Shown: piece by piece, positions 6,710 to 51,439 of the stretch
How positions within the stretch are numbered: the first letter of the stretch is position 1
Layout: the number at the start of each line of letters is the position of its first letter
From: a phage
Direction: 5' to 3' (one strand)
Length of the DNA: 64,000 nucleotides
NCBI GenBank assembly: GCA_020381345.1
Contig: GCA_020381345.1_3636.1
The notes under the pieces: model-generated
Databases searched by the model: none
The model's input: only the letters and a program-made list of their open reading frames with translations
What the model was told of the DNA's origin: nothing
Made by a program: the position numbers and the translations under genes

Positions 6710-7894
6710 CTCTTCAGGTCTGTGTGGGAAAAGCCGACCCCTCCGGCGGCGGGGAGGTGGTCAATTAAAAAATTTACGGGGTATATGAAGCGCTCTTCAG
6801 GTAAGGCATGTATTATGGGATGAAACCCTCTTCAGGCAATGATATTTGTGGGTGTGATATTTGCTGGAAAGCCAGATATGACGGGACTCCCGGCGGGGCA
6901 GGGGTAGTACAGACAGGGAAAATATGGGGATGTAGTTGGGTGAATTGATCGGTCAGGTAGGGTATGGAATATGTTACAGGTATGTTAAATATGGAGGGTG
7001 AATATCTGTAGGATTTGTGTGTAAAATCAAAGACTTAAGTGGTGTTGTGGTATTTTCTATAAATAATTCAAGTTTAATAGGTAATATTTGTCCCTATCCA
7101 CTTTGTGTGGTAAACAAATTCAGATGAGATTGGTTTACAAGTGTATACATAATATACAAATTAAAGATACAAGAAACCCCCCTCCCCCTTCGGCTACCAT
7201 TCACCTTTTCCTCTGACTGGTACTTAAACACTTATTCAGACTCTTCAGGTTATCACCCATATATCATATGGCAGTGACTGGTGTCCTCCGGCCCCTCTTT
7301 CGTCACCCGTCCGCTTCGCCATGCTAATGCCATAGCCAAAGGTTCGGTTGTTCACCCTGTTCACTCAGGTGTATCTCCATACCCCTTCAAACCGAAGAGA
7401 ACAGAAAACCCGAATTACTCGGTAAAAGAAAAGAGAAGAACTTAATTTTATCAGGATAGGCAAGAATGTCAAGGCATGACTGCTCACTAAACAAGCAAAC
7501 AGTCATGTGTGGGAGGTAAGTGATTGTGGTTGTAGGAAATTTAGTTGAAAGATGTGTTATAGGTGCTTCCAGCACTTTAGCCGGGCAGCTAATTGTGTGT
7601 CAGTCCAGCGGTTCATCCTCTACTTCACTGAAATCAATGTTCATGGTCTCTTCCCAACCATCGATCTCAGCACAAGAGTGGAGTTCTTTAGGGTTTACTC
7701 CCAAAGCCTCAGCAACAGAGTCTATATTTAACACCTCTGGCAGGTATGATTCATCGAATTCAAGGTAAATCAGGCCACGAGTATTGTCAGCTCCACCAAA
7801 TAGTTCTATCTTCATGAAATCTCCTTCGGAAAATGAGTGTGAACAGGATTATACGTCCCAATGCGCAGGAATTATGCACGTTTGCCTCTTCAGG
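6710..7894 (+). repeat. five same-strand copies of CTCTTCAGG
   Basis: Exact 9-mer at 6710, 6793, 6828, 7241 and 7886; copies at 6710, 6828 and 7886 are followed by TGTGGG and the one at 6793 by TGGG; two are followed by CCGGCGG(C)GGG tracts. Confidence 0.6.
7600..7815 (-). CDS. hypothetical acidic protein (71 aa)
   Basis: ORF track; strongly acidic composition. Confidence 0.45.
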   Translation of the reverse strand: MKIELFGGADNTRGLIYLEFDESYLPEVLNIDSVAEALGVNPKELHSCAEIDGWEETMNIDFSEVEDEPLD

Positions 7895-8506: not shown

Positions 8507-8818
8507 CTATACCCACGAGGGCTTATCAAGATTGGAGTAGCTGAAAGGTGTCAAAAGGTGACTGTCAAAATCTCTCAAACTATCCAAATCTTTTTCCTCG
8601 TCCTGACACCATCTGTGCCTACATTTATTGTTGTAGTGCATGGAATGCATAGCGTTCTGCAACTTAACAGGTACAAGTGATTCAGGAGTAGATAGTATTG
8701 TAGGGTATGCCAGAACCACCTCAAACAGTGGAAACACATCGAAACTAAAGTCTACCTCTGCAGAGGTTGATGGCATATAGGAGTATTTAGCCGCCTTTGT
8801 AGACATAATCCACCTCAC
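8507..8818 (-). CDS. hypothetical protein (103 aa)
   Basis: ORF track. Confidence 0.5.
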   Translation of the reverse strand: MRWIMSTKAAKYSYMPSTSAEVDFSFDVFPLFEVVLAYPTILSTPESLVPVKLQNAMHSMHYNNKCRHRWCQDEEKDLDSLRDFDSHLLTPFSYSNLDKPSWV

Positions 8819-9141
8819 ACAGGTTTGATAATACCTTCACCTAATAACTCTTCATATCTAATCTTATCCGGATCCCACTCCTGGATAATTTCGAAGACAA
8901 TATCCAACCCAGGAATAATCACTTCTCCAGTGTCAAGTTTGGCAAGAACAAAACCAGAAGGCTGAATGGTTTCCCAGTTGCGACGATTGGAATAGAAGAC
9001 CTCGAAAATATCACCGACCTTGATCTGTTGATCAAGATGTTCAAGATTCTCTTTCATATAGACGCAGCGGATTTTTCGTGCAGGCCATAGACCACCTGCA
9101 TCACGTTCATTTAGCTCTTTCACAGTGATTGGCATTCTCAT
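8815..9141 (-). CDS. hypothetical protein (about 108 aa)
   Basis: Track ORF 8815..9192 would read through an intergenic hairpin; the internal ATG at 9141 has RBS AAGGA. Confidence 0.45.
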   Translation of the reverse strand: MRMPITVKELNERDAGGLWPARKIRCVYMKENLEHLDQQIKVGDIFEVFYSNRRNWETIQPSGFVLAKLDTGEVIIPGLDIVFEIIQEWDPDKIRYEELLGEGIIKPV

Positions 9142-9934: not shown

Positions 9935-10198
9935 TCATTTATCCTTGCCGTCAAGAACTTTTTTAAATCTTTCAGGGATATCGCCTGTTCTTAGATAGCT
10001 CATGACCTCACAAGGTTCCCACTTAAATTTCTTACAAAGCAGGGCGGCTGAGATTGTTTCATTGCGAAAAGAAAGGATATTAATATCCCATTCTGAGAAC
10101 CCCAACTTCCGAAGGGTAGCTACAGAAATCCTCACCGCAACCCAGCAGCAAAAACATGCAACAAACGCCACTGCTATAACCCACATCAGGATGTTCAT
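9935..10198 (-). CDS. hypothetical membrane protein (87 aa)
   Basis: N-terminal hydrophobic helix MNILMWVIAVAFVACFCCWVAV. Confidence 0.5.
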   Translation of the reverse strand: MNILMWVIAVAFVACFCCWVAVRISVATLRKLGFSEWDINILSFRNETISAALLCKKFKWEPCEVMSYLRTGDIPERFKKVLDGKDK

Positions 10199-10207
10199 AC
10201 AAGCACC

Positions 10208-10291
10208 TCACTGAAATACAAGACACAGTGCTAAGGTTACAGACCAGCAAATAACTAACAGTGCCGTTGCAACCTTGGCAAGATTTATCAT
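10208..10291 (-). CDS. small hydrophobic peptide (27 aa), not in ORF track
   Basis: Hand-translated MINLAKVATALLVICWSVTLALCLVFQ; ATG overlaps upstream stop as ATGA; GAGG 7 nt upstream. Confidence 0.35.
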   Translation of the reverse strand: MINLAKVATALLVICWSVTLALCLVFQ

Positions 10292-10575
10292 AGTGCCTCT
10301 AAGATTTCATATCCTTCGGGTCGGAATACAAGCCACTCCGTGGCTCCGTTTGGTCGATACGCTTTATACAGAACAACCTGATCTCGGCACATGCACATAG
10401 CTACATAGTTTTCATCCACACCTGCAGCCTGCATTGCAGCTTCTTCTCCGGCAACTGCTTTGCTTACAACCTCCTTAGTAGGCAGGTGTGCGATCAGCTC
10501 GTCACCATCATTAATTCCAAAATGGCTGAGCTCCCCATTGGTATCTTTAATCTTAATTTTAACCAGATCTTTCAT
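10288..10575 (-). CDS. hypothetical protein (95 aa)
   Basis: ORF track; start adjoins upstream stop. Confidence 0.5.
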   Translation of the reverse strand: MKDLVKIKIKDTNGELSHFGINDGDELIAHLPTKEVVSKAVAGEEAAMQAAGVDENYVAMCMCRDQVVLYKAYRPNGATEWLVFRPEGYEILEAL

Positions 10576-10904
10576 TAGTCTTCCTCCAGGTTCAAAGGCC
10601 CTAAGATTTCATATGCCAGATTAGAAGTTACCAGAGGGTCTTCTGCATCTTTAGTATTATACCACCCGTGAATAACCAGAGTCCCACTCTGTTTCATATC
10701 CAACTGGAACTGTTCTGCAGTTTCCTCATCCATCTCTAAGATTTCCATAAGGTATTTGATGTTAGGAAGGTATGCAGCTGTTACAGTTCCCTCCACCAAA
10801 CCTTCGGGCCAACCTACATCTGGATGACAAGTAGGAACCAGGTTGGTCAGCTTAATGGTGTACGCTTTTTCTGCACGAGCCTTCAGTAACTGGTCAATCT
10901 TCAT
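10575..10904 (-). CDS. hypothetical acidic protein (109 aa)
   Basis: ORF track; member of tandem small-gene array. Confidence 0.5.
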   Translation of the reverse strand: MKIDQLLKARAEKAYTIKLTNLVPTCHPDVGWPEGLVEGTVTAAYLPNIKYLMEILEMDEETAEQFQLDMKQSGTLVIHGWYNTKDAEDPLVTSNLAYEILGPLNLEED

Positions 10905-11254
10905 TATTCGTCCTCCTCTTCGGTGCCTGCTTCCAGTAATAAGTTAAGAATATCTTCTGCACAAGGCTCATAGAACTCTTGGCCTTCATTATCGATGATT
11001 TTGTAGTCATCTCCGCGAATAATCAGAGGATCACTCTCAAAATTATCGAGACCTTTAACAACGACAACACGATCGATTGCCATCATTGTAAGAACTTTAT
11101 CGACATCTTCCTCTGCTACACCATACTGCAGCAGAATGTCTTTGGTAGGAGGAACAGCATCCACCACAACGCCGTTACCAAAACCTTCTGGAAGTTTAGC
11201 TAAAATATCTTCCGGAACCACATTCACATCAAAACCGGTAATTTCTACTTTCAT
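10904..11254 (-). CDS. hypothetical acidic protein (116 aa)
   Basis: ORF track; MKVEITG-type N-terminus shared with neighbours. Confidence 0.5.
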   Translation of the reverse strand: MKVEITGFDVNVVPEDILAKLPEGFGNGVVVDAVPPTKDILLQYGVAEEDVDKVLTMMAIDRVVVVKGLDNFESDPLIIRGDDYKIIDNEGQEFYEPCAEDILNLLLEAGTEEEDE

Positions 11255-11515
11255 TTACAGCACCTCTTCGTCAACTACTTCATAAAAATGGCCTGGGATT
11301 GCAATAGCGTTCTCACCTTCACCTACAAACACAGTTCCGTCAAGAATCAACATCATAAGAATGTCTGGAATATCCTCTTCCGGAACGTTGCCAAAACTTT
11401 TAATCAGTTTGTAGGTTGGAAGATTTACCTCTAAGATGTCACCATCTTTAGAACGGAAATCTACACCGTCCTGAATCTCTGCCGTTTCAAGGTTTTTCAA
11501 TTTAATCTTCATCAA
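11255..11515 (-). CDS. hypothetical protein (86 aa)
   Basis: ORF track; MMKIKL N-terminus. Confidence 0.5.
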   Translation of the reverse strand: MMKIKLKNLETAEIQDGVDFRSKDGDILEVNLPTYKLIKSFGNVPEEDIPDILMMLILDGTVFVGEGENAIAIPGHFYEVVDEEVL

Positions 11516-11591
11516 TCAGTCTCCTGTCTTGTTAAGATGAAGGTATTATTTCACACAGGGTTGGTGTTGTCAACACCTGTGTGCAAGAAAA

Positions 11592-11987
11592 TTACTGAAA
11601 CAGTGCGGATAAATTACCTTCTGGTGGGAACTTATCTGCCAAAAACGGTGTTAGCACAGTAGCCTTCTGAAGATCTGGGGTCCACTCGTTGTTCAGAACA
11701 TCCCAGTAGTACGCAATGTTACTGTGTGGGTGCCGCATTACGAACTTTTTCCCTTCGTAGTCATCTGAAACCTCTACAGAAGAAATAACAACAGAATCTT
11801 CAAGGGTTTCTTCATAGAAAGATCCGCCTTCAAATTTCCAACGAGATGCAAGAGCCCCTGCCTTGAACGCTGCAGATAACGGACTGTCGGCAAGAACATA
11901 CATTTCTTGCACTCTGTCGCTGCGATCCTTGCTTCTTACGTTGTACACAGTATCTGAGCTATACTCAACACGGTATAGGCTTACCAT
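11592..11987 (-). CDS. hypothetical protein (131 aa)
   Basis: Paralog of 13794..14192 (shared HP-S--YW---WTP block). Confidence 0.5.
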   Translation of the reverse strand: MVSLYRVEYSSDTVYNVRSKDRSDRVQEMYVLADSPLSAAFKAGALASRWKFEGGSFYEETLEDSVVISSVEVSDDYEGKKFVMRHPHSNIAYYWDVLNNEWTPDLQKATVLTPFLADKFPPEGNLSALFQ

Positions 11988-12346
11988 TACCGCACCTCCT
12001 CAATAACTTCCACATCTGAACCCACCACAAATGCAAAAGGACAGGTTTCATGAAAGACATCCGGATCGCCGCCAAGCTTGCTAACAATTTCTCCACCACT
12101 AATAAACACAAGCTCACCGATATTCATCAGATTGCTGAAATAGTATCCATAATGATTAAAGAATGCAGCAGGGTCAGGTAGACTAGTAGCCTCAAGTTCT
12201 ACATCGGTTGAGATTACTTTCTTATCATAACCTCTCGCCTTCTGAGATGCAAGATCTGCAGAATCTTCAGGCGACCGGAGATGCACAGGAATTGTTTCAC
12301 CAATAAAGCGTACTTTCATATTATCACCCAACAACCATAGCTTCAA
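11987..12346 (-). CDS. hypothetical protein (119 aa or shorter)
   Basis: ORF track; internal MKVRFIGE start possible. Confidence 0.45.
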   Translation of the reverse strand: MKLWLLGDNMKVRFIGETIPVHLRSPEDSADLASQKARGYDKKVISTDVELEATSLPDPAAFFNHYGYYFSNLMNIGELVFISGGEIVSKLGGDPDVFHETCPFAFVVGSDVEVIEEVR

Positions 12347-12587
12347 AAGGGGTCATGAACGAATAAACGGCATCATCATCTGCTTCAGGGAATGCTCCCA
12401 AAGACTTCATGTCTGAGCCTTTGACAAATACAAGGTTTTGATCAAAAGCTTCTTGGGGGTCAATCCGATACATATTTCGTAGAATATCACCTACCTCTTC
12501 ATCAAGAGGTGAGTATGCTGTGCACGTTTTTCCGATCAAGCTTTGAGAATCAGGGTATCCACCTGAAGTTTTAAAATAAACAATCAT
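12324..12587 (-). CDS. hypothetical protein (87 aa)
   Basis: Resembles the 14205/14449/18104 family (GYP and VxVKGxDxxSxGA motifs). Confidence 0.5.
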   Translation of the reverse strand: MIVYFKTSGGYPDSQSLIGKTCTAYSPLDEEVGDILRNMYRIDPQEAFDQNLVFVKGSDMKSLGAFPEADDDAVYSFMTPFEAMVVG

Positions 12588-12678
12588 ATAGTATCACCTC
12601 TGGTAAGAGATTGGGATTCCTTTCCCACAAATAATTACAAACCTTCCTTATAGAGGAAGCATGCTAATCCAAGCAGGA

Positions 12679-12948
12679 TTATTCCTCTACAATCTCATAC
12701 ACATCAGGAGTTACAATCAACTCTTCTCCGTTACCCGGTGCAACAAACACCACCATGCCTTCAGGTGTGTGCTTTTTAGCCATCTCGATAACATCTTCTC
12801 GCAGAGCTGGCTCCATCAGATCAAAACCTTCACCCAGGGCATCACGAACCACCTTCATATAGTCAACTGGTTGTGCTTCGACAATCATGCCTTCAACCAG
12901 TCCACAGTTTTTGTCTGCCAGCTCAGTTTTGAATAATTTAATTTTCAT
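12679..12948 (-). CDS. hypothetical acidic protein (89 aa)
   Basis: ORF track; MKIKLF N-terminus. Confidence 0.5.
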   Translation of the reverse strand: MKIKLFKTELADKNCGLVEGMIVEAQPVDYMKVVRDALGEGFDLMEPALREDVIEMAKKHTPEGMVVFVAPGNGEELIVTPDVYEIVEE

Positions 12949-13085
12949 TTAGAGGTCTCCTCAATTATTTGATATTAATAGCCGTAACCTAACACATTAA
13001 CTACAACTGCGATTGCAAACATAATTTCAAAGCATGCAATCTCTACATTTGGGACTAATTTCTTAATCATACCTATTGTAGCACC

Positions 13086-13403
13086 TCATTCTCCAAAGTC
13101 AATCTTTACTTTGCCTTTCCCCTTACCTTTCTTTCCACCGCATTTAGCCAGCTGACGTGCTGCAACATCTACCATACGGTCAGTTGCCTCGTAAGCATCA
13201 CTACCTTTAGCCTTGGCAATAACTTCTTTTCCAGAATTGTCAAAAATGAGCGCCATAACTTCCTGGTGATCATTTTCAACTTTTACACTTACACGTGCAT
13301 GATTTACAGAAGGATGTAGACGCTCCAGTTTTGACATTTTGTGGGAAATGAAAGACACCATACCTTCGGTGATTTCTACGTTGCCAGTGATCTCAATTTG
13401 CAT
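13086..13403 (-). CDS. ribosome hibernation promoting factor / RaiA-family homolog (105 aa)
   Basis: MQIEITGNVEITE N-terminus, VKVE block and ARQLAK C-terminal motif match the short HPF/YfiA family as recalled from E. coli; Lys/Gly-rich tail. Confidence 0.75.
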   Translation of the reverse strand: MQIEITGNVEITEGMVSFISHKMSKLERLHPSVNHARVSVKVENDHQEVMALIFDNSGKEVIAKAKGSDAYEATDRMVDVAARQLAKCGGKKGKGKGKVKIDFGE

Positions 13404-13485
13404 AACGTGTTCCTTTTAAAGAAGAGGGAATAACTCTCTCTTTGAAAACAATAATACTATAACTGAAGCGTTGTGTCAACAGTTT

Positions 13486-13776
13486 TTACAGCTTGTTGTC
13501 GATAGTTTTTAAAATATCCACAGCGAGATCTGCCATTTTTCGAACATACTCTGCAAACTCAACAGGATCCTTGATCAAAGAATTCACAGGGTCGTACCCT
13601 AGAGCGTTTAAAATGGCTGCAGCATCTACAACCTTCTCATCATTTGCGAAGATCTCTCCGTCAAACTTGTAGGTCCATTTTGAGTCAACCTTAGCAGAGC
13701 AGGGTTTGTCCATGCTTGTTACACCATCGTCTTTAAACTCTCCTGCGTTATCAATATTTAGAATTAAATCCATCAT
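13486..13776 (-). CDS. hypothetical protein (96 aa)
   Basis: ORF track. Confidence 0.5.
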   Translation of the reverse strand: MMDLILNIDNAGEFKDDGVTSMDKPCSAKVDSKWTYKFDGEIFANDEKVVDAAAILNALGYDPVNSLIKDPVEFAEYVRKMADLAVDILKTIDNKL

Positions 13777-13793
13777 GGTGACACCTCACTGTT

Positions 13794-14192
13794 TCAGTTT
13801 AGCTTTTCTTCAACAACCCCATAACTTGGGGCAGAGTCAAGAGCTTTCTGGTTTAAAAGTGGCGTAGCAGAATCTGCAAACGGTGTCCAAGTTTTTGTTC
13901 TGGCATTCCAGTAATGCTTAACTCTGGAATCTGGATGCACTATAACAAAAACTTTTTCACTTGTCAACACATTAATTTCTTCTACACCCTTGCTGATAAT
14001 TTCTCCGTCATAGCCCCCAGTCTGGTATCCTTCGTACCAGGTTCTTGCATAGGCATAGCCAGCCTGCCAGCATGCAGCCTCCTCCGAGGTGGAGACTACG
14101 TAGAAGTCTTTCTCAAATTCTGGAATACGCCCTTGCTTTACGCTCCAAGCCCCGCGAATTTTCATTGTAACTTTAAACAGTTTATTTTTCAC
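13794..14192 (-). CDS. hypothetical protein (132 aa)
   Basis: Paralog of 11592..11987. Confidence 0.5.
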   Translation of the reverse strand: MKNKLFKVTMKIRGAWSVKQGRIPEFEKDFYVVSTSEEAACWQAGYAYARTWYEGYQTGGYDGEIISKGVEEINVLTSEKVFVIVHPDSRVKHYWNARTKTWTPFADSATPLLNQKALDSAPSYGVVEEKLN

Positions 14193-14204
14193 AACGGTTA
14201 CCCA

Positions 14205-14459
14205 TCACAGCTCTACAATATCTGCATCTGACCCTACCCCAAAGGCATAGTAGGACTCTTCCCCGAAATAATATTCAGGTGCACCAGCGGTGATCAGGTC
14301 TGATCCTAAGATAAACACCACGTTGTGGCCTACATAACTGTGATGTTGCCGCACAGGATCATCCCACGGCAACCCTTCAAAGTATACCGCAGGGACGACC
14401 TTTCCTTTCAGGAAGGATTGCCCCAAGTAGACGTTAGAATCAAGAATTTTAACCTTCAT
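14205..14459 (-). CDS. hypothetical protein (84 aa), MKVK-LDS family
   Basis: Paralog of 14449..14676 and 18104..18337 (MKVKxLD, YxGQ, GxDLIxAGA). Confidence 0.5.
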   Translation of the reverse strand: MKVKILDSNVYLGQSFLKGKVVPAVYFEGLPWDDPVRQHHSYVGHNVVFILGSDLITAGAPEYYFGEESYYAFGVGSDADIVEL

Positions 14460-14676
14460 GATCGTCCTCCACTATCTCTACATCCTCACCTAGGGCAAAG
14501 TTGTAGGTCCACTGACTGTCAAAGCATTCCTGAGATGCACCAGCGGCAATAAGATCTGCCCCTTTTATTTTTAAAAGGTCAGGGTAATCTTCGTTAGGGA
14601 CAGCAGTAAACACTTTCCCCACTAAAGGCTCCTGACCAATATAGAAGCTTGAATCTAAAACTTTAACTTTCATCAA
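14449..14676 (-). CDS. hypothetical protein (75 aa), MKVK-LDS family
   Basis: Paralog of 14205..14459. Confidence 0.5.
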   Translation of the reverse strand: MMKVKVLDSSFYIGQEPLVGKVFTAVPNEDYPDLLKIKGADLIAAGASQECFDSQWTYNFALGEDVEIVEDDHEG

Positions 14677-14960
14677 CGGTCTCCATCAGGTGGTTGTGGG
14701 ACGTAAACACTGTTACGAATATCGTCCGCAGTATAGTAATAAGTGTCTCCAACCCTATCTCTGGCTGCAATGTACTCTGCTATACCAATAAGTGCCATTG
14801 ATTTGGTGGCGTATCTTCCCCACTCGTTAGCTCCCCAGTAGAATTTAGACCAATAGGGAATAAGACCGAACAAATATACCTTTTGACGAACTTCCCAGTA
14901 AGTGCCTTTCCCGACAAGTTTAAACTCAACTTCACCACTGTTAATCTTTTTCATTATCAA
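14673..14960 (-). CDS. hypothetical protein (95 aa)
   Basis: ORF track; 4-nt overlaps with neighbours. Confidence 0.5.
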   Translation of the reverse strand: MIMKKINSGEVEFKLVGKGTYWEVRQKVYLFGLIPYWSKFYWGANEWGRYATKSMALIGIAEYIAARDRVGDTYYYTADDIRNSVYVPQPPDGDR

Positions 14961-15253
14961 TCTCCCTCTACCGTGGTCGGATTGTCAGTAAGAAATTGAG
15001 CATTAGCTGGAGGCACACCTGACATTTTCCACACGACCATAAGTTTGTAACCAGGCACTCTATTAAGCGCAGATCGAGTAGAGTTTGTGCACGTATACTT
15101 TCGCTTTCCAAACCCGTTCTCCATCATAATCCAGTACCCAGTATCTTTGTCACCAGGTATTGGTAGACCACCTTCATCAACCCACTGAATGGACCACGGC
15201 ACGATGGCTACAGCTTTATATTTAAACTTTTTAAACCACTCAAAAAGTTTCAT
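14957..15253 (-). CDS. hypothetical protein (98 aa)
   Basis: ORF track. Confidence 0.5.
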   Translation of the reverse strand: MKLFEWFKKFKYKAVAIVPWSIQWVDEGGLPIPGDKDTGYWIMMENGFGKRKYTCTNSTRSALNRVPGYKLMVVWKMSGVPPANAQFLTDNPTTVEGD

Positions 15254-15256
15254 AAT

Positions 15257-15346
15257 TCAGCCTCGCATAGACATAATCACTATAAACAGGCAAACAATGA
15301 ATCCGAATGCCACGCCACCCATAAACGTTAATATTGATGCAATCAT
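15257..15346 (-). CDS. small hydrophobic peptide (29 aa), not in ORF track
   Basis: Hand-translated MIASILTFMGGVAFGFIVCLFIVIMSMRG; lies between two tightly spaced genes. Confidence 0.35.
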   Translation of the reverse strand: MIASILTFMGGVAFGFIVCLFIVIMSMRG

Positions 15347-15348
15347 AG

Positions 15349-15534
15349 TCAATCAGCCTCGCTTGGCAACTCTTCCACCTTAACATGCCGAAAAGTGTTA
15401 CCGTAATGGTTGATCCATGACATCAGCTCACTTTCTTGCTCTTCCTCTGGGATGAACTCTCGAATACTGACAAGTTTTAAGAAAACCCAATCACAATCTG
15501 CACCCATTCTACCAGACAGACAATAGTGCTTCAT
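15349..15534 (-). CDS. hypothetical protein (61 aa)
   Basis: ORF track. Confidence 0.45.
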   Translation of the reverse strand: MKHYCLSGRMGADCDWVFLKLVSIREFIPEEEQESELMSWINHYGNTFRHVKVEELPSEAD

Positions 15535-15553
15535 AAAAACCCTCCATCCTGGT

Positions 15554-15754
15554 TTAGAATACTGCCTCTTTTAATGATCCAAGGAGCAGCAGGTGTGAAA
15601 TCTGATCCACATCCATGGTAGATTCAATCTCCTCTTTTTTGAAAGGTTCTCGGCAAAACAGTACTACATTTGGGTTTTCGCTACGCACTATATAATACAG
15701 ATCGTTCAAATCATTCTCATAGTAGGTATTAAATTTAAGAATTTTGTCACTCAT
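15554..15754 (-). CDS. hypothetical protein (66 aa)
   Basis: ORF track. Confidence 0.45.
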   Translation of the reverse strand: MSDKILKFNTYYENDLNDLYYIVRSENPNVVLFCREPFKKEEIESTMDVDQISHLLLLGSLKEAVF

Positions 15755-16038
15755 TTTCTAATCCTCTTCTTAGATTTTTGTGCAGAAACGCTTTCTGCAA
15801 TACGAGACAGGCGTTCTTCTGAAGCTTTACCTACCCCAGGTTTCTTGAGCGGGTTATCTTTATGACCGCAATCCAATTGGATGCTAGATACCTCCCCAAC
15901 CTTGTAAGTCAATTCTAACAAAAGGTTGTCGTCCTTGTCAAATGTTTTTACGATAAATTTTTTATCGTCCTCCTGAACTTCATACCTAGTACCTGCAGTA
16001 TACAGCATGGTGCCATCAGTGTAGGATATCCAAATCAT
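15751..16038 (-). CDS. hypothetical protein (95 aa)
   Basis: ORF track; basic C-terminus. Confidence 0.5.
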   Translation of the reverse strand: MIWISYTDGTMLYTAGTRYEVQEDDKKFIVKTFDKDDNLLLELTYKVGEVSSIQLDCGHKDNPLKKPGVGKASEERLSRIAESVSAQKSKKRIRK

Positions 16039-16382
16039 TGCACCTCCTTCTGCTGCAACAGCATTAACTCTTTGTTGGAAATCTTTACTGCTGTCTTTAT
16101 TGTTCCATCTTCACGGAACCACGACCAGAATTCTACAGTGTCACCACTATCAAGCAAGGCATGACCATGGTAAAAATCCTTGTCCTTAGACAGTTTCTCA
16201 TCTATATCTGCATCGACACATTCGTGATCCATAGCATTTTGCCTGAATGCATCGGTTATGCCAATGCATGCCTTGCTCTCAAGACTGGTATATCCGATAT
16301 CTTTTAATTCAGTTTCCCAAGTCCAGTATCCTACAAAAGCCACAACAGCTACCCACATTAATATCGATTTAATCTTTGACAT
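16035..16382 (-). CDS. hypothetical membrane/secreted protein (115 aa)
   Basis: N-terminal hydrophobic segment ILMWVAVVAFVGYW. Confidence 0.5.
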   Translation of the reverse strand: MSKIKSILMWVAVVAFVGYWTWETELKDIGYTSLESKACIGITDAFRQNAMDHECVDADIDEKLSKDKDFYHGHALLDSGDTVEFWSWFREDGTIKTAVKISNKELMLLQQKEVQ

Positions 16383-16442: not shown

Positions 16443-16904
16443 CTACTTAAACAACAGTTCAAAATAGTGCAAAATTAACAGAAGTTGAATTACGCCTAGC
16501 ACAACAGCAAGTATGTTAATCTTAGAATCAAAAAACTTCTTAACTTTTACCCTAAAAGGTTCCTTAATGTCCTTTACGATCCTATCTATAGATGACCTCA
16601 TATCCCTGATTACCATCCTGAACATTAAAGACGGATGATCCCTCTCTGTAACGGAATCGAAAACATACTCTCTTTGATCACAAGGGCCGCCAGCTCTGCG
16701 TATTAACCTCTCCACAGAGACCTCGTACGACACACCTGTAACGTAATCATCTATGACAAGGAGTGACGGGTCTTTATCGTCCAAGGGTATCAAAGTTATC
16801 TTTCCAGATTTTGTTAAAATTTCTCCTTTTTCAAGTAAGGTGTACCAATGCTCTCTGCCAAGACTGTTGAGGCACGTTTTTACATATTTAACAAACATCG
16901 TCAC
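16443..16904 (-). CDS. hypothetical protein with C-terminal TM helix (153 aa)
   Basis: ORF track; C-terminal ILAVVLGVIQLLLIL. Confidence 0.5.
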   Translation of the reverse strand: MTMFVKYVKTCLNSLGREHWYTLLEKGEILTKSGKITLIPLDDKDPSLLVIDDYVTGVSYEVSVERLIRRAGGPCDQREYVFDSVTERDHPSLMFRMVIRDMRSSIDRIVKDIKEPFRVKVKKFFDSKINILAVVLGVIQLLLILHYFELLFK

Positions 16905-17305: not shown

Positions 17306-17542
17306 TTAGGTGCGGTCTCCATCCCTACTCTCCTTTTTCTCCTTACGGATATTCTTGTAGTAATCAACTAGGCACATTATTACAATGAAGATAACAATAG
17401 GCCAAAAAGGTGCAGCAGTGATGATGGTGATAAAATCATCAAACTCCACCTTTCGTCTAGCTAAGATGCATACACCTGTCAAGAATACCGCTGTTATAAC
17501 GGCTATTACCAGGTAACCTATTAGCACAGCATTTATACTCAT
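17306..17542 (-). CDS. small two-TM membrane protein (78 aa); holin candidate
   Basis: Two hydrophobic helices and a charged C-terminus (KNIRKEKKESRDGDRT). Confidence 0.45.
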   Translation of the reverse strand: MSINAVLIGYLVIAVITAVFLTGVCILARRKVEFDDFITIITAAPFWPIVIFIVIMCLVDYYKNIRKEKKESRDGDRT

Positions 17543-17573
17543 TAGTCCTCCCTTTTGTAGGTTAAATTATATA

Positions 17574-18107
17574 CTACAGATGGTTGCTTATGGTGTCAAG
17601 AAAATTATCTCGTTCTTTCTCGGAGTTTTCACGGGTGTAGCTGAAAAACATATCTAGAATAACCTTATTGATATATTCCAGCTCCTCTGTGTTCAGGTAC
17701 TTAGCAGGATCTACAATGACATCCCAAATATCATACAGACCACACTCATGATATCCATAACGCCACTCAATTGTCAAGCTGAGCGGCAAATCTTTACCGT
17801 CACAAACAACCTTCCATCTACATATGTTGGTATCTGGGCGTATCTGTGCACGGTATACCTGTACAAAATCCAATTTGAATTTGAGGTATTCGTCATGCAA
17901 TTTAAGCACAAAGTTCTCGATTTGTGGAGACACTTTTGCAGCAAACTGTGCGTATTTGTATTTGCACTGGATGATCTTTCTGCGTTTTGCAGTTAAATTT
18001 TTTGCCGCCAGTTGTTCTTCAGTGTATCTCCACCTACGATCAACAAACGCAACAGGGTCTTTGTCCCCATAGAGGTCTTCCCAGTTAATCAGAAGCATAC
18101 CTGTCAC
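17574..18107 (-). CDS. hypothetical protein (177 aa)
   Basis: ORF track. Confidence 0.55.
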   Translation of the reverse strand: MTGMLLINWEDLYGDKDPVAFVDRRWRYTEEQLAAKNLTAKRRKIIQCKYKYAQFAAKVSPQIENFVLKLHDEYLKFKLDFVQVYRAQIRPDTNICRWKVVCDGKDLPLSLTIEWRYGYHECGLYDIWDVIVDPAKYLNTEELEYINKVILDMFFSYTRENSEKERDNFLDTISNHL

Positions 18108-18337
18108 TCCTCCACAACTTCAAGGCCTTTACCGCCTCGCTCTGGCAGATTACTTAAAGATAGGTAATACATATAATCAGGAGAGATCCTGCCAGACTCT
18201 GCACCTGCAGATAGTAAATCTTTTCCCTTAACCATGACAACATTATCGTTTGCAGATAGTCGTTTTGCTTCCACAATTTTACCAACGCAGTCAACCAAGG
18301 AAGGGTACCCTAAATCTGTAAGAAATTTAACTTTCAT
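18104..18337 (-). CDS. hypothetical protein (77 aa), MKVK-LDS family
   Basis: Paralog of 14205..14459. Confidence 0.5.
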   Translation of the reverse strand: MKVKFLTDLGYPSLVDCVGKIVEAKRLSANDNVVMVKGKDLLSAGAESGRISPDYMYYLSLSNLPERGGKGLEVVEE

Positions 18338-18376: not shown

Positions 18377-18775
18377 TTACTGAACAAAGCGCGGAGCTGG
18401 GAAGGATAACTCTTCTAAAGAGAAGATTTCATTCCCCACAATCCATGTTGCAGGATCATCTGGGTTGACTGGATAGATAATCATCACCTCGTCAGTGTTA
18501 CATACCCGCTTTTTACCTGTGGAGTCATCAGCAACCAGCATGCGCGGTTCTTCAGAAATGCACAGGTAGCCTCCTCGGCCCACTGTTCCTTCCACAGGGT
18601 CTTGCCCTTTGATCACGATGATTATCTTCTCTCCTGAGGCGATATTACCTTGCACACTCACCGTTTGACCAACCTTGGATGTGCCAATCTTAGTGACTTC
18701 GAACATTACATCCCGAATTACTGTTGCATAATCGCCAGACACTTTCTTACCTTCTTTAGTGATCTCAATCTTCAT
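18377..18775 (-). CDS. hypothetical protein (132 aa)
   Basis: ORF track; MKIEITK N-terminus. Confidence 0.5.
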   Translation of the reverse strand: MKIEITKEGKKVSGDYATVIRDVMFEVTKIGTSKVGQTVSVQGNIASGEKIIIVIKGQDPVEGTVGRGGYLCISEEPRMLVADDSTGKKRVCNTDEVMIIYPVNPDDPATWIVGNEIFSLEELSFPAPRFVQ

Positions 18776-19046: not shown

Positions 19047-19361
19047 CTACCAGGTCACTGTCAAGTAGGCAACTGTGTTATTTTTCTCCGGAGAGATGCC
19101 AACAACATCCACCTGCAGACCTCCTGCCCTCAAATCCCCAACAATGTGTGGGAAGTAGTCTGAGAGATGCGAGGGTAGATTTATCGAAAATCCGCATCCC
19201 AGAAAGCCTGCTAACGCTTTATTTTGTATCTCCCCTACAATCGCATCATAAATGGAGTTAAGCTCGTCAGGGAGCGTTACAGGACGTTTTAGCGCTAACT
19301 GGTGTAATTTGTCCTTAGCACTCATTTTCATTTCAGGTCTACCTCTGGTGGTGCCAACCAC
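19047..19361 (-). CDS. hypothetical protein (104 aa)
   Basis: ORF track. Confidence 0.5.
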   Translation of the reverse strand: MVGTTRGRPEMKMSAKDKLHQLALKRPVTLPDELNSIYDAIVGEIQNKALAGFLGCGFSINLPSHLSDYFPHIVGDLRAGGLQVDVVGISPEKNNTVAYLTVTW

Positions 19362-19861
19362 ATAAATGGCGGCAAGCCTAAACGGTTTTTCTTATCCCAC
19401 ACAAAATATGCATATGCTTGCCCGTCAGTTCTGCCATTTGATTGAAATGACGGACGCTTAGATATTGTGATCACAGTGGTAGGTGCATTATCAAGCCACC
19501 ATTCAAATCTGGCTTTGCTTTCCAGAAAATTAAGACGTAAAAGCATAATAACTACGTCAGCATCTTTCAACGCCTTGTCTACAAACTCACGAGCTAAGCT
19601 GTATGGTGGGTTGGTGATAATACAGTCAACATGGTTGTATTCTGTATTCAGATAGTCAACACCTTCTTGGATTTCTCCCCATGCAGATCCTAACGGCATA
19701 CGGGAGTAGAACACACCTGAGGCACTATTCCTGCAAGGCTCTAAGTAGGTCCAGTCTTCTGGGAACGGAATAAGGTCATACAGCCCTTCTGCACACCACT
19801 CCGGTGTCACATACTCATCGTAGGCGTTACGTTGTTCATCAGGTTTTCTAGCACAAGTCAT
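19328..19861 (-). CDS. DNA methyltransferase (N6-adenine or N4-cytosine type, 177 aa)
   Basis: Catalytic motif IV CIITNPPYS in translation; no adjacent restriction gene. Confidence 0.65.
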   Translation of the reverse strand: MTCARKPDEQRNAYDEYVTPEWCAEGLYDLIPFPEDWTYLEPCRNSASGVFYSRMPLGSAWGEIQEGVDYLNTEYNHVDCIITNPPYSLAREFVDKALKDADVVIMLLRLNFLESKARFEWWLDNAPTTVITISKRPSFQSNGRTDGQAYAYFVWDKKNRLGLPPFMWLAPPEVDLK

Positions 19862-50499: not shown

Positions 50500-50574
50500 G
50501 CCCTGTTAGCTTAGTGGATAAAGCAGCGGCCTTCTAAGCCGTTGACACTGGTTCGAGTCCAGTACGGGGTGCCA
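50500..50574 (+). tRNA. tRNA-Arg (anticodon TCT)
   Basis: Hand-folded cloverleaf: acceptor GCCCTGT/ACGGGGT, anticodon loop CTTCTAA, T-loop TTCGAGT, encoded CCA. Confidence 0.7.
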
Positions 50575-50704
50575 AGTTCTTTTTAATGTAGCTTACTTTA
50601 GCAGAGTAAATCTTCGGCAAGTGGCGGTAACCACTTTACCGATACCTCATAGTTAGTGGTGAGAACACTAGCTATTTTAAAAAGAATTTAAATATTAGTA
50701 TTTA

Positions 50705-50792
50705 GGTGAGTTAATTCCGTAGGGGTAGCGGGGCAGACTGTAAATCTGTTATCATTGCGATTCGGGTGGTTCGACTCCATCACTCACCACCA
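50705..50792 (+). tRNA. tRNA-Tyr (anticodon GTA), long variable arm
   Basis: Acceptor GGTGAGT/ACTCACC, anticodon loop CTGTAAA, T-loop TTCGACT, CCA; 88 nt. Confidence 0.6.
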
Positions 50793-50906
50793 AATTTATA
50801 TTTTTAAATGCATAAATCATACAGATAATGGCATTGATATTTATCGTCGTTTATACTAGTCACTAACTGCTCGAAAATCAGTGTCATTATCAGTATTGTT
50901 TATAAA

Positions 50907-50997
50907 AGAGGGTAGGGAGCAATGGTGCTCAAGCGGTCTTGAAAACCGTCCCGTTGAGGATTACTCGATGATGGTTCGATTCCATTATCCTCTGCCA
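50907..50997 (+). tRNA. tRNA-Ser (anticodon TGA), type II
   Basis: Acceptor AGAGGGT/ATCCTCT, anticodon loop CTTGAAA, T-loop TTCGATT, CCA; 91 nt. Confidence 0.6.
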
Positions 50998-51095
50998 TAT
51001 TGTTGACCTTGTAATTAAGCGAAAGCCGGAAGCAGAACCGGATTATCAAATGTTACAGTCGTCATCGCCGACTAGCAACATGGTCAACATACTGA

Positions 51096-51192
51096 GCTAG
51101 GTAAGCCCTTTGGCAAGGGCGAGGATTTTTAATCCTGAAAATAGACGAGGTAGTCGTTGAATACATAGGTGGTTCGATTCCATCACCTAGCA
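51096..51192 (+). tRNA. atypical tRNA-like element (97 nt), anticodon uncertain
   Basis: Acceptor GCTAGGT/ACCTAGC, D-arm GCCC/GGGC, T-arm GGTGG-TTCGATT-CCATC, but non-canonical anticodon arm, 29-nt extra arm, A at position 8, no CCA. Confidence 0.35.
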
Positions 51193-51199
51193 CCTTTTT

Positions 51200-51275
51200 G
51201 CTGATGTAGCACAATTGGTAGTGCAATTGATTTGTAATCAATAGGTTGCAGGTTCAAGTCCTGCCATCAGCACCA
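51200..51275 (+). tRNA. tRNA-Thr (anticodon TGT)
   Basis: Acceptor GCTGATG/CATCAGC, anticodon loop TTTGTAA, T-loop TTCAAGT, CCA. Confidence 0.7.
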
Positions 51276-51276
51276 T

Positions 51277-51351
51277 GGCCCTGTAGCTGGAAGGTTCAAG
51301 CAAGCGACTCATAATCGCCAGACGGTGGTTCAATTCCACCCAGGGCCACCA
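51277..51351 (+). tRNA. tRNA-Met or Ile2 (anticodon CAT)
   Basis: Acceptor GGCCCTG/CAGGGCC, anticodon loop CTCATAA, T-arm GGTGG-TTCAATT-CCACC, CCA; D-stem weak. Confidence 0.55.
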
Positions 51352-51362
51352 AATAATGAATA

Positions 51363-51439
51363 CTCCGCGTAGCTCAGCTTGGTAGAGCGCCTGATTTGGG
51401 ATCAGGAGGTCGAGTGTTCGAATCACTCCGTGGAGACCA
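51363..51439 (+). tRNA. tRNA-Pro (anticodon TGG)
   Basis: Acceptor CTCCGCG/CGTGGAG, D-arm GCTC-AGCTTGGTA-GAGC, anticodon loop TTTGGGA, T-loop TTCGAAT, CCA. Confidence 0.7.

Follow-up and report, generated by a model that had tools for sequence, protein, structure and literature searches.

A conserved array of anciently duplicated small genes in an rV5-like Escherichia coli phage, with SH3-like barrels predicted for two of its three families

Takeover clusters of lytic phages include the host-takeover module of SPO1, the non-essential early clusters of T4 and the small acidic inhibitors of the T7 gp5.5/gp5.9 type. The T4 early protein MotB has a predicted N-terminal KOW/SH3-like domain (PMC7827196). 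Here we have analyzed an array of small genes on the minus strand of a 64,000-nucleotide stretch of phage DNA (the window; contig GCA_020381345.1_3636.1), at positions 10,288 to 14,676, which a first-pass annotation had described as a tandem array of small paralogous genes of unknown function. The window belongs to a lytic rV5-like (Vequintavirus) E. coli myophage, ~98% identical to FFH2/rV5, and the 4.4-kb span itself is 98% identical to FFH2, the rV5-type typing phages and ~120 other Vequintavirus records. Like the takeover clusters, the span holds many tightly packed, coupled open reading frames (ORFs) of <130 amino acids (aa) with host-type promoter matches (by consensus only), and its acidic products lack homologues of known function. 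The array was borne out by shuffling controls, hidden Markov models (HMMs) and hhalign, which resolved it into three families of paralogues, named A, B and C. We give about an even chance to the reading, drawn from the anatomy of the proteins and of the locus, that this conserved set of ancient paralogues encodes protein-binding modulators of host factors.

All ORFs named by the first-pass annotation were present on the minus strand at their positions (genes are called here by their left-hand coordinate; Table 1), with the real starts of three genes corrected to give 14449-14673, 11255-11512 and 11987-12319. An all-against-all BLASTP of the 35 small proteins encoded between 7.6 and 19.9 kb yielded three pairs, while the families emerged from profile clustering by HMM and hhalign; compositional bias was controlled by Smith-Waterman comparison with 300 composition-preserving shuffles (595 pairs, median z = -0.06). 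By this analysis, 12 of the 14 genes comprising those of the span plus 18104 fall into family A (five genes, including 18104), family B (two) or family C (five), the two exceptions within the span being an HPF/RaiA homologue (13086-13403) and an orphan (13486-13776).

Family A, the MKVK-LDS family of the first-pass annotation, consists of 14449, 14205, 12324, 11987 and 18104. The pair 14205/14449 is 41% identical over 83 aa (z = 24.3, hhalign 99.6%) and the pair 14449/18104 is 30% identical over 77 aa (z = 12.7, hhalign 99.3%). When the window was searched with an HMM from a broad family A alignment lacking both 12324 and 11987, 12324 came up at E = 1.4e-8, so that its earlier listing as a probable member was correct; beyond it, the only ORF recovered was 11987, through its C-terminal half (E = 3.7e-5). 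Profile-profile comparison agreed, with hhalign pairing 11987 with 14205 at 95.4% (E = 1.8e-8) and 12324 with 14449, 14205 and 18104 at 74-90% (best with 18104, 89.4%), and we therefore count five members in the window, among them 11987, which by its sequence is a family A protein that had been overlooked. In PHROGs, 14205, 14449 and 18104 already stand together in phrog_5009 as full-length members (E = 3e-32, 1e-38 and 8.4e-36, respectively); 12324 matches this group at E = 1.2e-4, whereas 11987 does not match its HMM and owes its membership to our own HMM and hhalign. All 43 members of the broad alignment match phrog_5009, but family A is spread over at least three PHROG groups, with phrog_13367, 8603, 13920 and 13661 as related groups. 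None of the 43 matches any Pfam model at E <= 0.01, and the family is therefore uncurated.

The second duplicated pair of the first-pass annotation, 11592/13794, makes up family B (131-132 aa). The two proteins are 28% identical over 119 aa (z = 15.3, hhalign 94.9%), recognize each other with reciprocal HMMs (E = 2.9e-13 and 3.1e-9) and are already joined as full-length members in phrog_7379, a group that has neither a function nor a Pfam model; family B gave no match to PDB sequences or Pfam. The many neighbours with MK(V/I)(K/E)(I/L) N-termini turned out to be a real third family, C, comprising 10288, 10575, 10904, 11255 and 12679. Pairwise signals in this family are weak, with 10904/11255 the strongest (hhalign 58%, z = 6.8). 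We enlarged the set with orthologues drawn from databases and from L013, a divergent rV5-like contig of metagenomic origin, and built HMMs from which one orthologue group was omitted each time. Each omitted gene was the top non-training match among the 461 window ORFs (E = 1.2e-8, 1.5e-8, 4.2e-6, 5.5e-6 and 3.4e-4), with the next-best ORF at E >= 0.2. Members of family C have in common an MKIK strand, a (D/E)G..h.A.hPT segment, an acidic helical insert, an hVV strand and an invariant Tyr in a C-terminal YEI(V/L)E strand. PHROGs split them over five groups (phrog_12794, 12457, 12155, 12359 and 11868) and do not recognize C as one family; no PHROG group of A, B or C has a function or a Pfam model.

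That these similarities are compositional only, owing to a common MK start, acidic tails and biased composition, has next to no chance of being true and is already refuted by the shuffle, HMM, PHROG and alignment tests. The tails are indeed acidic, partly reflecting overlapping Shine-Dalgarno sequences, and several family C pairs are weak when taken alone (hhalign 5-16%). The similarity is nevertheless not compositional, as evidenced by: 1) z values of 24.3, 15.3 and 12.7 against a median of -0.06, with most other A pairs at 5.9-8.2 and one at 4.5; 2) z >= 4.2 in five of the ten C pairs vs. ~0.03 expected; 3) the recovery of every C member by a leave-one-out HMM, with a clear gap above background; 4) the concurrence of the PHROG clustering, which was made independently; and 5) alignments that cover the protein cores, not the tails.

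Structure prediction for one A and one C protein gave an SH3-like barrel in both cases. AlphaFold2 modelled family A (target 14449) with five strands and one short helix at a predicted local distance difference test (pLDDT) score of 90.4 and a predicted template modelling (pTM) score of 0.78, and family C (target 11255) at pLDDT 88.1 and pTM 0.74, with the same strand order and two extra helices, forming a helical hairpin, between strands 2 and 3. The inserts of the A proteins 14205, 12324 and 11987 also lie between strands 2 and 3. On these models, A and C are predicted to be SH3-like five-stranded beta-barrels, with SH3-like domains as the closest structural neighbours, an assignment that pertains to fold class only. 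A Foldseek search of BFVD returned a single significant neighbour of family C, an uncharacterised 86-aa protein of Vibrio phage Vc1 (TM score 0.74). No A or C protein matched the Pfam KOW model (PF00467) at E <= 1, nor did the Pfam searches match canonical SH3 domains (SH3_1 and related). Of the ten A and C proteins, nine are strongly acidic, with an isoelectric point (pI) of 4.0-4.8 and a net charge of -6 to -21, which speaks for protein binding or mimicry and against direct contact with nucleic acids.

The suggestion that the array is fast-evolving did not hold up. Its genes are present in ~117-119 of ~120 Vequintavirus records, and the ratios of nonsynonymous to synonymous substitution (dN/dS) of twelve genes against phage FV3 are low: 0.00-0.11 for A, 0.03 for both B genes and 0.03-0.16 for C, compared with 0.04 for ClpP, 0.02 for the methyltransferase and 0.02 for HPF. 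In L013, where ClpP is 69% and PhoH 74% identical to the window, all ten A and C genes are syntenic (44-73% and 29-60% identical, respectively); family B has kept one copy (40% identical), with 13794 replaced by an unrelated 96-aa ORF (8692-8982 of that contig). L013 also has an extra gene with PF27050 (Phage_P22_Y8K6) at 11092-11388, in the promoter-bearing gap between the orthologues of 11592 and 11255; the intergenic gaps thus look like sites of insertion. The search for DNA repeats between paralogues found none beyond one 31-nucleotide (nt) remnant (14277-14307 / 14533-14563). Since no longer DNA repeat is left and dN/dS is low, the duplications are ancient, with each copy kept by purifying selection, a pattern of subfunctionalisation and not of an expanding arms-race accordion.

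Two runs of genes, 14449-14205-13794 and 12324-11987-11592, have the order A-A-B, and the best partner of 11987 is its counterpart by position in the other block, 14205, which hints at an old block duplication. The other pairings weigh against so simple an event: the best partner of 12324 is 18104 and not 14449, while 14449 and 14205 are each other's closest relatives. With these misfits, and with no DNA repeat beyond the 31-nt remnant, a clean A-A-B segmental duplication was rejected.

Public assemblies also contain joined versions of array genes. In P0014 and P0018, the N-terminal half of 14449 is joined to the C-terminal half of 14205 at the conserved GxDLIxAGA segment, the only place of residual DNA similarity; P0027 joins a prophage-type family A N-terminal half to the C-terminal half of 14449, P0085 a DUF7399 N-terminus to the C-terminus of 10575, and P0095 parts of 13794 and 13486. 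These chimeric genes are rare recombinants between array genes. In comparison with FV3, the proteins of 17574 (51% identity), 17306 (53%), 14957 (63%), 15554 (65%) and 14673 (76%) stand out against most other genes, which are 92-100% identical (a few 84-90%), the five lying in 14673-15754 and 17306-18107. Divergent alleles amid near-identical genes point to recombinational allele swapping (mosaic replacement).

In word-indexed searches, A, B and C turned up almost exclusively on contigs of rV5-like phages, and tblastn with one member per family against 50,697 phage records gave essentially Vequintavirus only. An exhaustive profile search with family A retrieved 63 representative clusters at E <= 1e-3, mostly stand-alone proteins of 65-90 aa. 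Three entries (P0099, P0100 and P0150) have two or three tandem A copies in one chain, and one distant member is fused to DUF3310, other fusion partners having no Pfam domain. DUF3310 has been linked to the T7 gp1.7 nucleotide kinase (PMC10700055), too thin a connection for us to use. P0030, to which 18104 is the closest protein of the window (49% identical), resides in lambdoid E. coli prophages between the antiterminator Q and holin. In these prophages (L001-L003) the interval comprises ~10 small ORFs of 60-121 aa, including P0030 (~6200-9000 in L002); the remaining ones showed no significant similarity to the small proteins of the window. Other A members adjoin integrases or surround DNA polymerase genes in 40-50-kb viral contigs, with four copies in one contig (L012) and three in another (L009), and a scan of genome contigs located at least one further member in a Moellerella genome. 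Multiple copies in unrelated phages, always in accessory positions, indicate a recurring phage habit.

We surmise that the paralogues may be small protein-binding modules, each of which binds and modulates its own target among the proteins of the host (or phage) during infection, with the barrel as scaffold and the variable insert plus the acidic surface providing specificity. Such binding would serve to take over the host, or to inhibit a protein associated with DNA/RNA or with defence, and the copies would have arisen through tandem or segmental duplications of old date, with subfunctionalisation afterwards. We favor protein-binding modulators because the proteins are small, acidic, stand-alone SH3-like barrels (as predicted) with a variable insert, and because the repertoire is fixed, portable and in an accessory position. 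Several results weigh against this view. A, B and C gave no characterised family in Pfam, NCBIfam, PADLOC, PDB sequences or PHROG annotation, with no PADLOC match for 10 A, B and C proteins at E <= 0.1; known anti-defence proteins were likewise not matched via Pfam, NCBIfam or PDB sequences, which are general libraries, none of them anti-defence-specific. Common ancestry of A and C is unproven from sequence (hhalign 11% over 28 N-terminal columns) and was dropped as a claim; only fold class is common to them. Nor do anti-defence islands typically show conservation so nearly universal and dN/dS so low. Early host takeover in particular is not established, because the array is distal in a long transcription unit whose first genes are larger (in rV5, "genes 82-163"; PMC3606486), lies near a putative holin, and has in P0030 a homologue in a late, Q-dependent lambdoid operon.

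The first-pass annotation had leaned toward an arms-race locus, in which fast-evolving paralogues inhibit bacterial anti-phage defence systems. We consider this unlikely, even though the proteins are small, acidic and uncharacterised and sit in an accessory region of a lytic phage, the comparison with L013 shows comparatively low identities for all three families and the loss of one B copy where some neighbours are 80-97% identical, and chimeric or deleted variants (P0014, P0018, P0027 and P0095) occur in databases. Such features have to be set against dN/dS values (0.00-0.16) not above those of housekeeping-type neighbours, the presence of the genes in nearly every sequenced Vequintavirus, the retention of all A and C genes in synteny in L013, and the lack of matches to known anti-defence families within Pfam, or to any in PADLOC. 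Another reading would make the proteins mimics of the KOW type ("translation-protein SH3-like") that dock on RNA polymerase (RNAP), Rho, ribosomal protein S10 or the ribosome and, with HPF, reprogramme host transcription or translation. The T4 precedent of MotB (PMC7827196) would fit, as would the ribosome hibernation factor gene in the middle of the array and the KOW/NusG/L24 proteins among the structural neighbours of the models, both suggestive but weak pointers, but no KOW match was found in Pfam even at E <= 1, and the adjacency of HPF may be incidental since that gene has a promoter-like site of its own; we find this reading quite doubtful.

Virion-associated or assembly/late functions, in place of host modulation, seem very unlikely to us. 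In their favor, the FFH2 and FV3 annotations call the homologue of the nearby gene 16443-16904 (minus strand), which belongs to the same block, a virion structural protein, the lambdoid A homologue occupies a late operon between Q and the lysis genes, and 17306-17542 (minus strand) encodes a nearby 78-aa protein with two transmembrane domains that fits the description of rV5 gp129, a putative holin (PMC3606486). Late-function genes are therefore interspersed with small accessory genes here. Nevertheless, the main text of the rV5 paper names no family gene among virion proteins, family A occurs in replication and early-left regions of other phages, and the sigma70-like promoter matches are of host type. 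The same paper reports gp133 as an unexpected abundant virion protein (PMC3606486), which may correspond to the 16443-16904 homologue. Returning to protein-binding modulators, a bolder version would have A, C and similar phage barrels constitute one ancient, dispersed SH3-like "adaptor/inhibitor" superfamily, of which rV5-like phages keep ten binders with inserts targeting different host hubs (KOW-partner surfaces on Rho, S10 and RNAP, and nucleoid or defence proteins). We regard this as a long shot; if true, the array would provide these phages with a modular kit of binders for host proteins.

As to layout, the acidic tails and 1-4-nt overlaps noted earlier were confirmed: pI is low, and the junctions within clusters are -1, -1, 0, -1, +4, -11 and -1 nt, with -4 nt for 18104/17574. 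Gaps between clusters measure 79-137 nt and contain the best sigma70-like matches on the coding strand, and most starts are preceded by GGAGG, GAGG or AGGAG. The genes thus form short, translationally coupled operons with 0-4-nt junctions behind sigma70-like promoter matches. In coupled genes, the downstream Shine-Dalgarno site is made of Glu codons (GAG GAG) of the upstream acidic tail, which, judging from the sequence, partly explains why acidic tails and overlaps occur together. The acidic tail is not only a ribosome-binding-site artefact, because the C-terminal hEhhEE strand is kept in distant A members of other phages.

Table 1. Array genes and associated features of the window, in the order of the families.
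Feature	Coordinates	Strand	Remarks
Family A, 74 aa, minimal form (MKVKVLDS...EIVEDDHEG)	14449..14673	-	modelled by AlphaFold2
Family A, 84 aa, short insert between strands 2 and 3	14205..14459	-	overlaps 14449 by 11 nt; dN/dS 0.04
Family A, 87 aa, helical-looking insert	12324..12587	-	HMM without 12324, E = 1.4e-8
Family A, 110 aa, long insert; C-terminal half clearly A	11987..12319	-	start 12319 agrees with FFH2 annotation
Family A, 77 aa, outside the flagged span	18104..18337	-	closest relative of P0030 in the window (49% identity)
Family B, 132 aa, GTG start	13794..14192	-	phrog_7379, E = 4.3e-74
Family B, 131 aa	11592..11987	-	phrog_7379, E = 2.1e-66; dN/dS 0.03
Family C, 95 aa	10288..10575	-	leave-one-out HMM, E = 5.5e-6
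Family C, 109 aa	10575..10904	-	leave-one-out HMM, E = 4.2e-6
Family C, 116 aa, extra acidic C-terminal extension, net charge -21	10904..11254	-	leave-one-out HMM, E = 1.5e-8
Family C, 85 aa	11255..11512	-	modelled by AlphaFold2
Family C, 89 aa, alone between promoter-like site and terminator-like hairpin	12679..12948	-	leave-one-out HMM, E = 3.4e-4
HPF/RaiA ribosome hibernation factor homologue, not in A-C	13086..13403	-	PF02482, E = 2.1e-13, 51.2 bits vs. cutoff 23.7
Orphan small gene, 96 aa	13486..13776	-	phrog_12029 only
Sigma70-like promoter match TTGACA-17-TATTAT	13451..13479	-	upstream of HPF gene; 11/12 consensus, consensus match only
Sigma70-like promoter match TTGACT-16-TACAAT, extended -10	13075..13102	-	upstream of 12679; consensus match only
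Sigma70-like promoter match TTGACA-17-AATAAT, extended -10	11545..11573	-	79-nt gap upstream of four-gene C operon; consensus only
Terminator-like hairpin, gap after 12679	12643..12659	-	weak, 6-bp stem

Of the genes outside the three families, the HPF homologue is annotated as RaiA in FFH2 and FV3, and its dN/dS of 0.02 signifies strong constraint; a lytic phage here encodes HPF in mid-array, with its own strong sigma70-like promoter match (13479-13451). For the orphan 13486-13776, no paralogue was confirmed. A fourth family uniting it with the C-terminus of 17574 (z = 6.8) was considered and rejected, given HMM E-values of 0.6-3 and a common motif of only 7 residues; the extension of this idea to a 92-aa "YxYHECG" gene beside the lambdoid A homologue, as a conserved two-gene module, fell with the same HMM result. 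Two small predicted membrane proteins, 9935-10198 and 16035-16382 (both minus strand), resemble each other closely in their N-terminal transmembrane segments (ILMWV.AVAFV; 69% identity over 13 aa, z = 4.2) and may be a further small paralogue pair or a case of convergent likeness. The small acidic proteins of 7600-7815 and 18377-18775 (minus strand) start with MKIE(L/I) like A and C, the former being the best background match of one family C profile (E = 0.2), and both may be further, very divergent small barrels. Residues 13-59 of 11255-11512 align with residues 63-111 of the Dam-like DNA methyltransferase 19328-19861 (29% over 49 aa, z = 7.9), pairing "NLPTY" with the catalytic "NPPY" region; this likeness may be due to chance (corrected P ~0.01) or may be a relic.

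The minus strand carries genes from ~46 kb down to 7.6 kb of the window, and nearly all genes below 20 kb encode proteins of <180 aa, annotated in FFH2 and FV3 almost throughout as hypothetical proteins; the array is the distal part of the long transcription unit. The rV5 genome paper (PMC3606486) does not mention paralogues or duplications, our literature search found no paper discussing the array genes, a search on Vequintavirus anti-defence or on evolved rV5 deletions was unproductive, and we looked for transcriptome or expression data for the array and found none. The plus strand has six tRNA-like genes at 50500-51439 (Arg-TCT, Ser-TGA, Thr-TGT, Met-CAT, Pro-TGG and an odd one with a 4-nt anticodon, 51096-51194), and some of the matching Vequintavirus records bear the label "Campylobacter phage".

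Taken as a whole, the array is a real and fairly ordinary accessory-gene block, and its novelty is that of an uncurated example of a small accessory-gene family in phages, itself a familiar sort of thing. The block is annotated only as "hypothetical proteins" in more than 100 sequenced phages of the rV5 type, several of which have been considered as agents of biocontrol or therapy. Its reduction to three families, with one predicted SH3-like fold for ten of the genes, leaves fewer unknowns and provides concrete constructs for interaction screens, and the main value of the work is this defined target set for interaction and knockout experiments. Family A, recurring in lambdoid prophages and unrelated phages without a Pfam model, is a candidate new domain family. 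The expectation that arrays of this kind are bound to evolve fast also stands corrected, as the present one is old and fixed, and purifying selection acts on it.

In relation to the takeover clusters of SPO1 and T4, the array likewise consists of small genes in operons behind host-type promoters, the latter identified by consensus match only. Unlike the SPO1, T4 and T7-type modules, which are made up mostly of unrelated genes, it is dominated by three paralogous families. At the level of fold, the five-stranded topology predicted for A and C matches that of the SH3-like small barrels (SH3, KOW/Spt5/NusG, PsaE and the retroviral integrase C-terminal domain), but A and C lack an SH3 or KOW sequence signature and are acidic, stand-alone and multi-copy. 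T4 MotB provides an example of a phage early protein with this predicted fold (PMC7827196), but it is a DNA-binding, two-domain protein.

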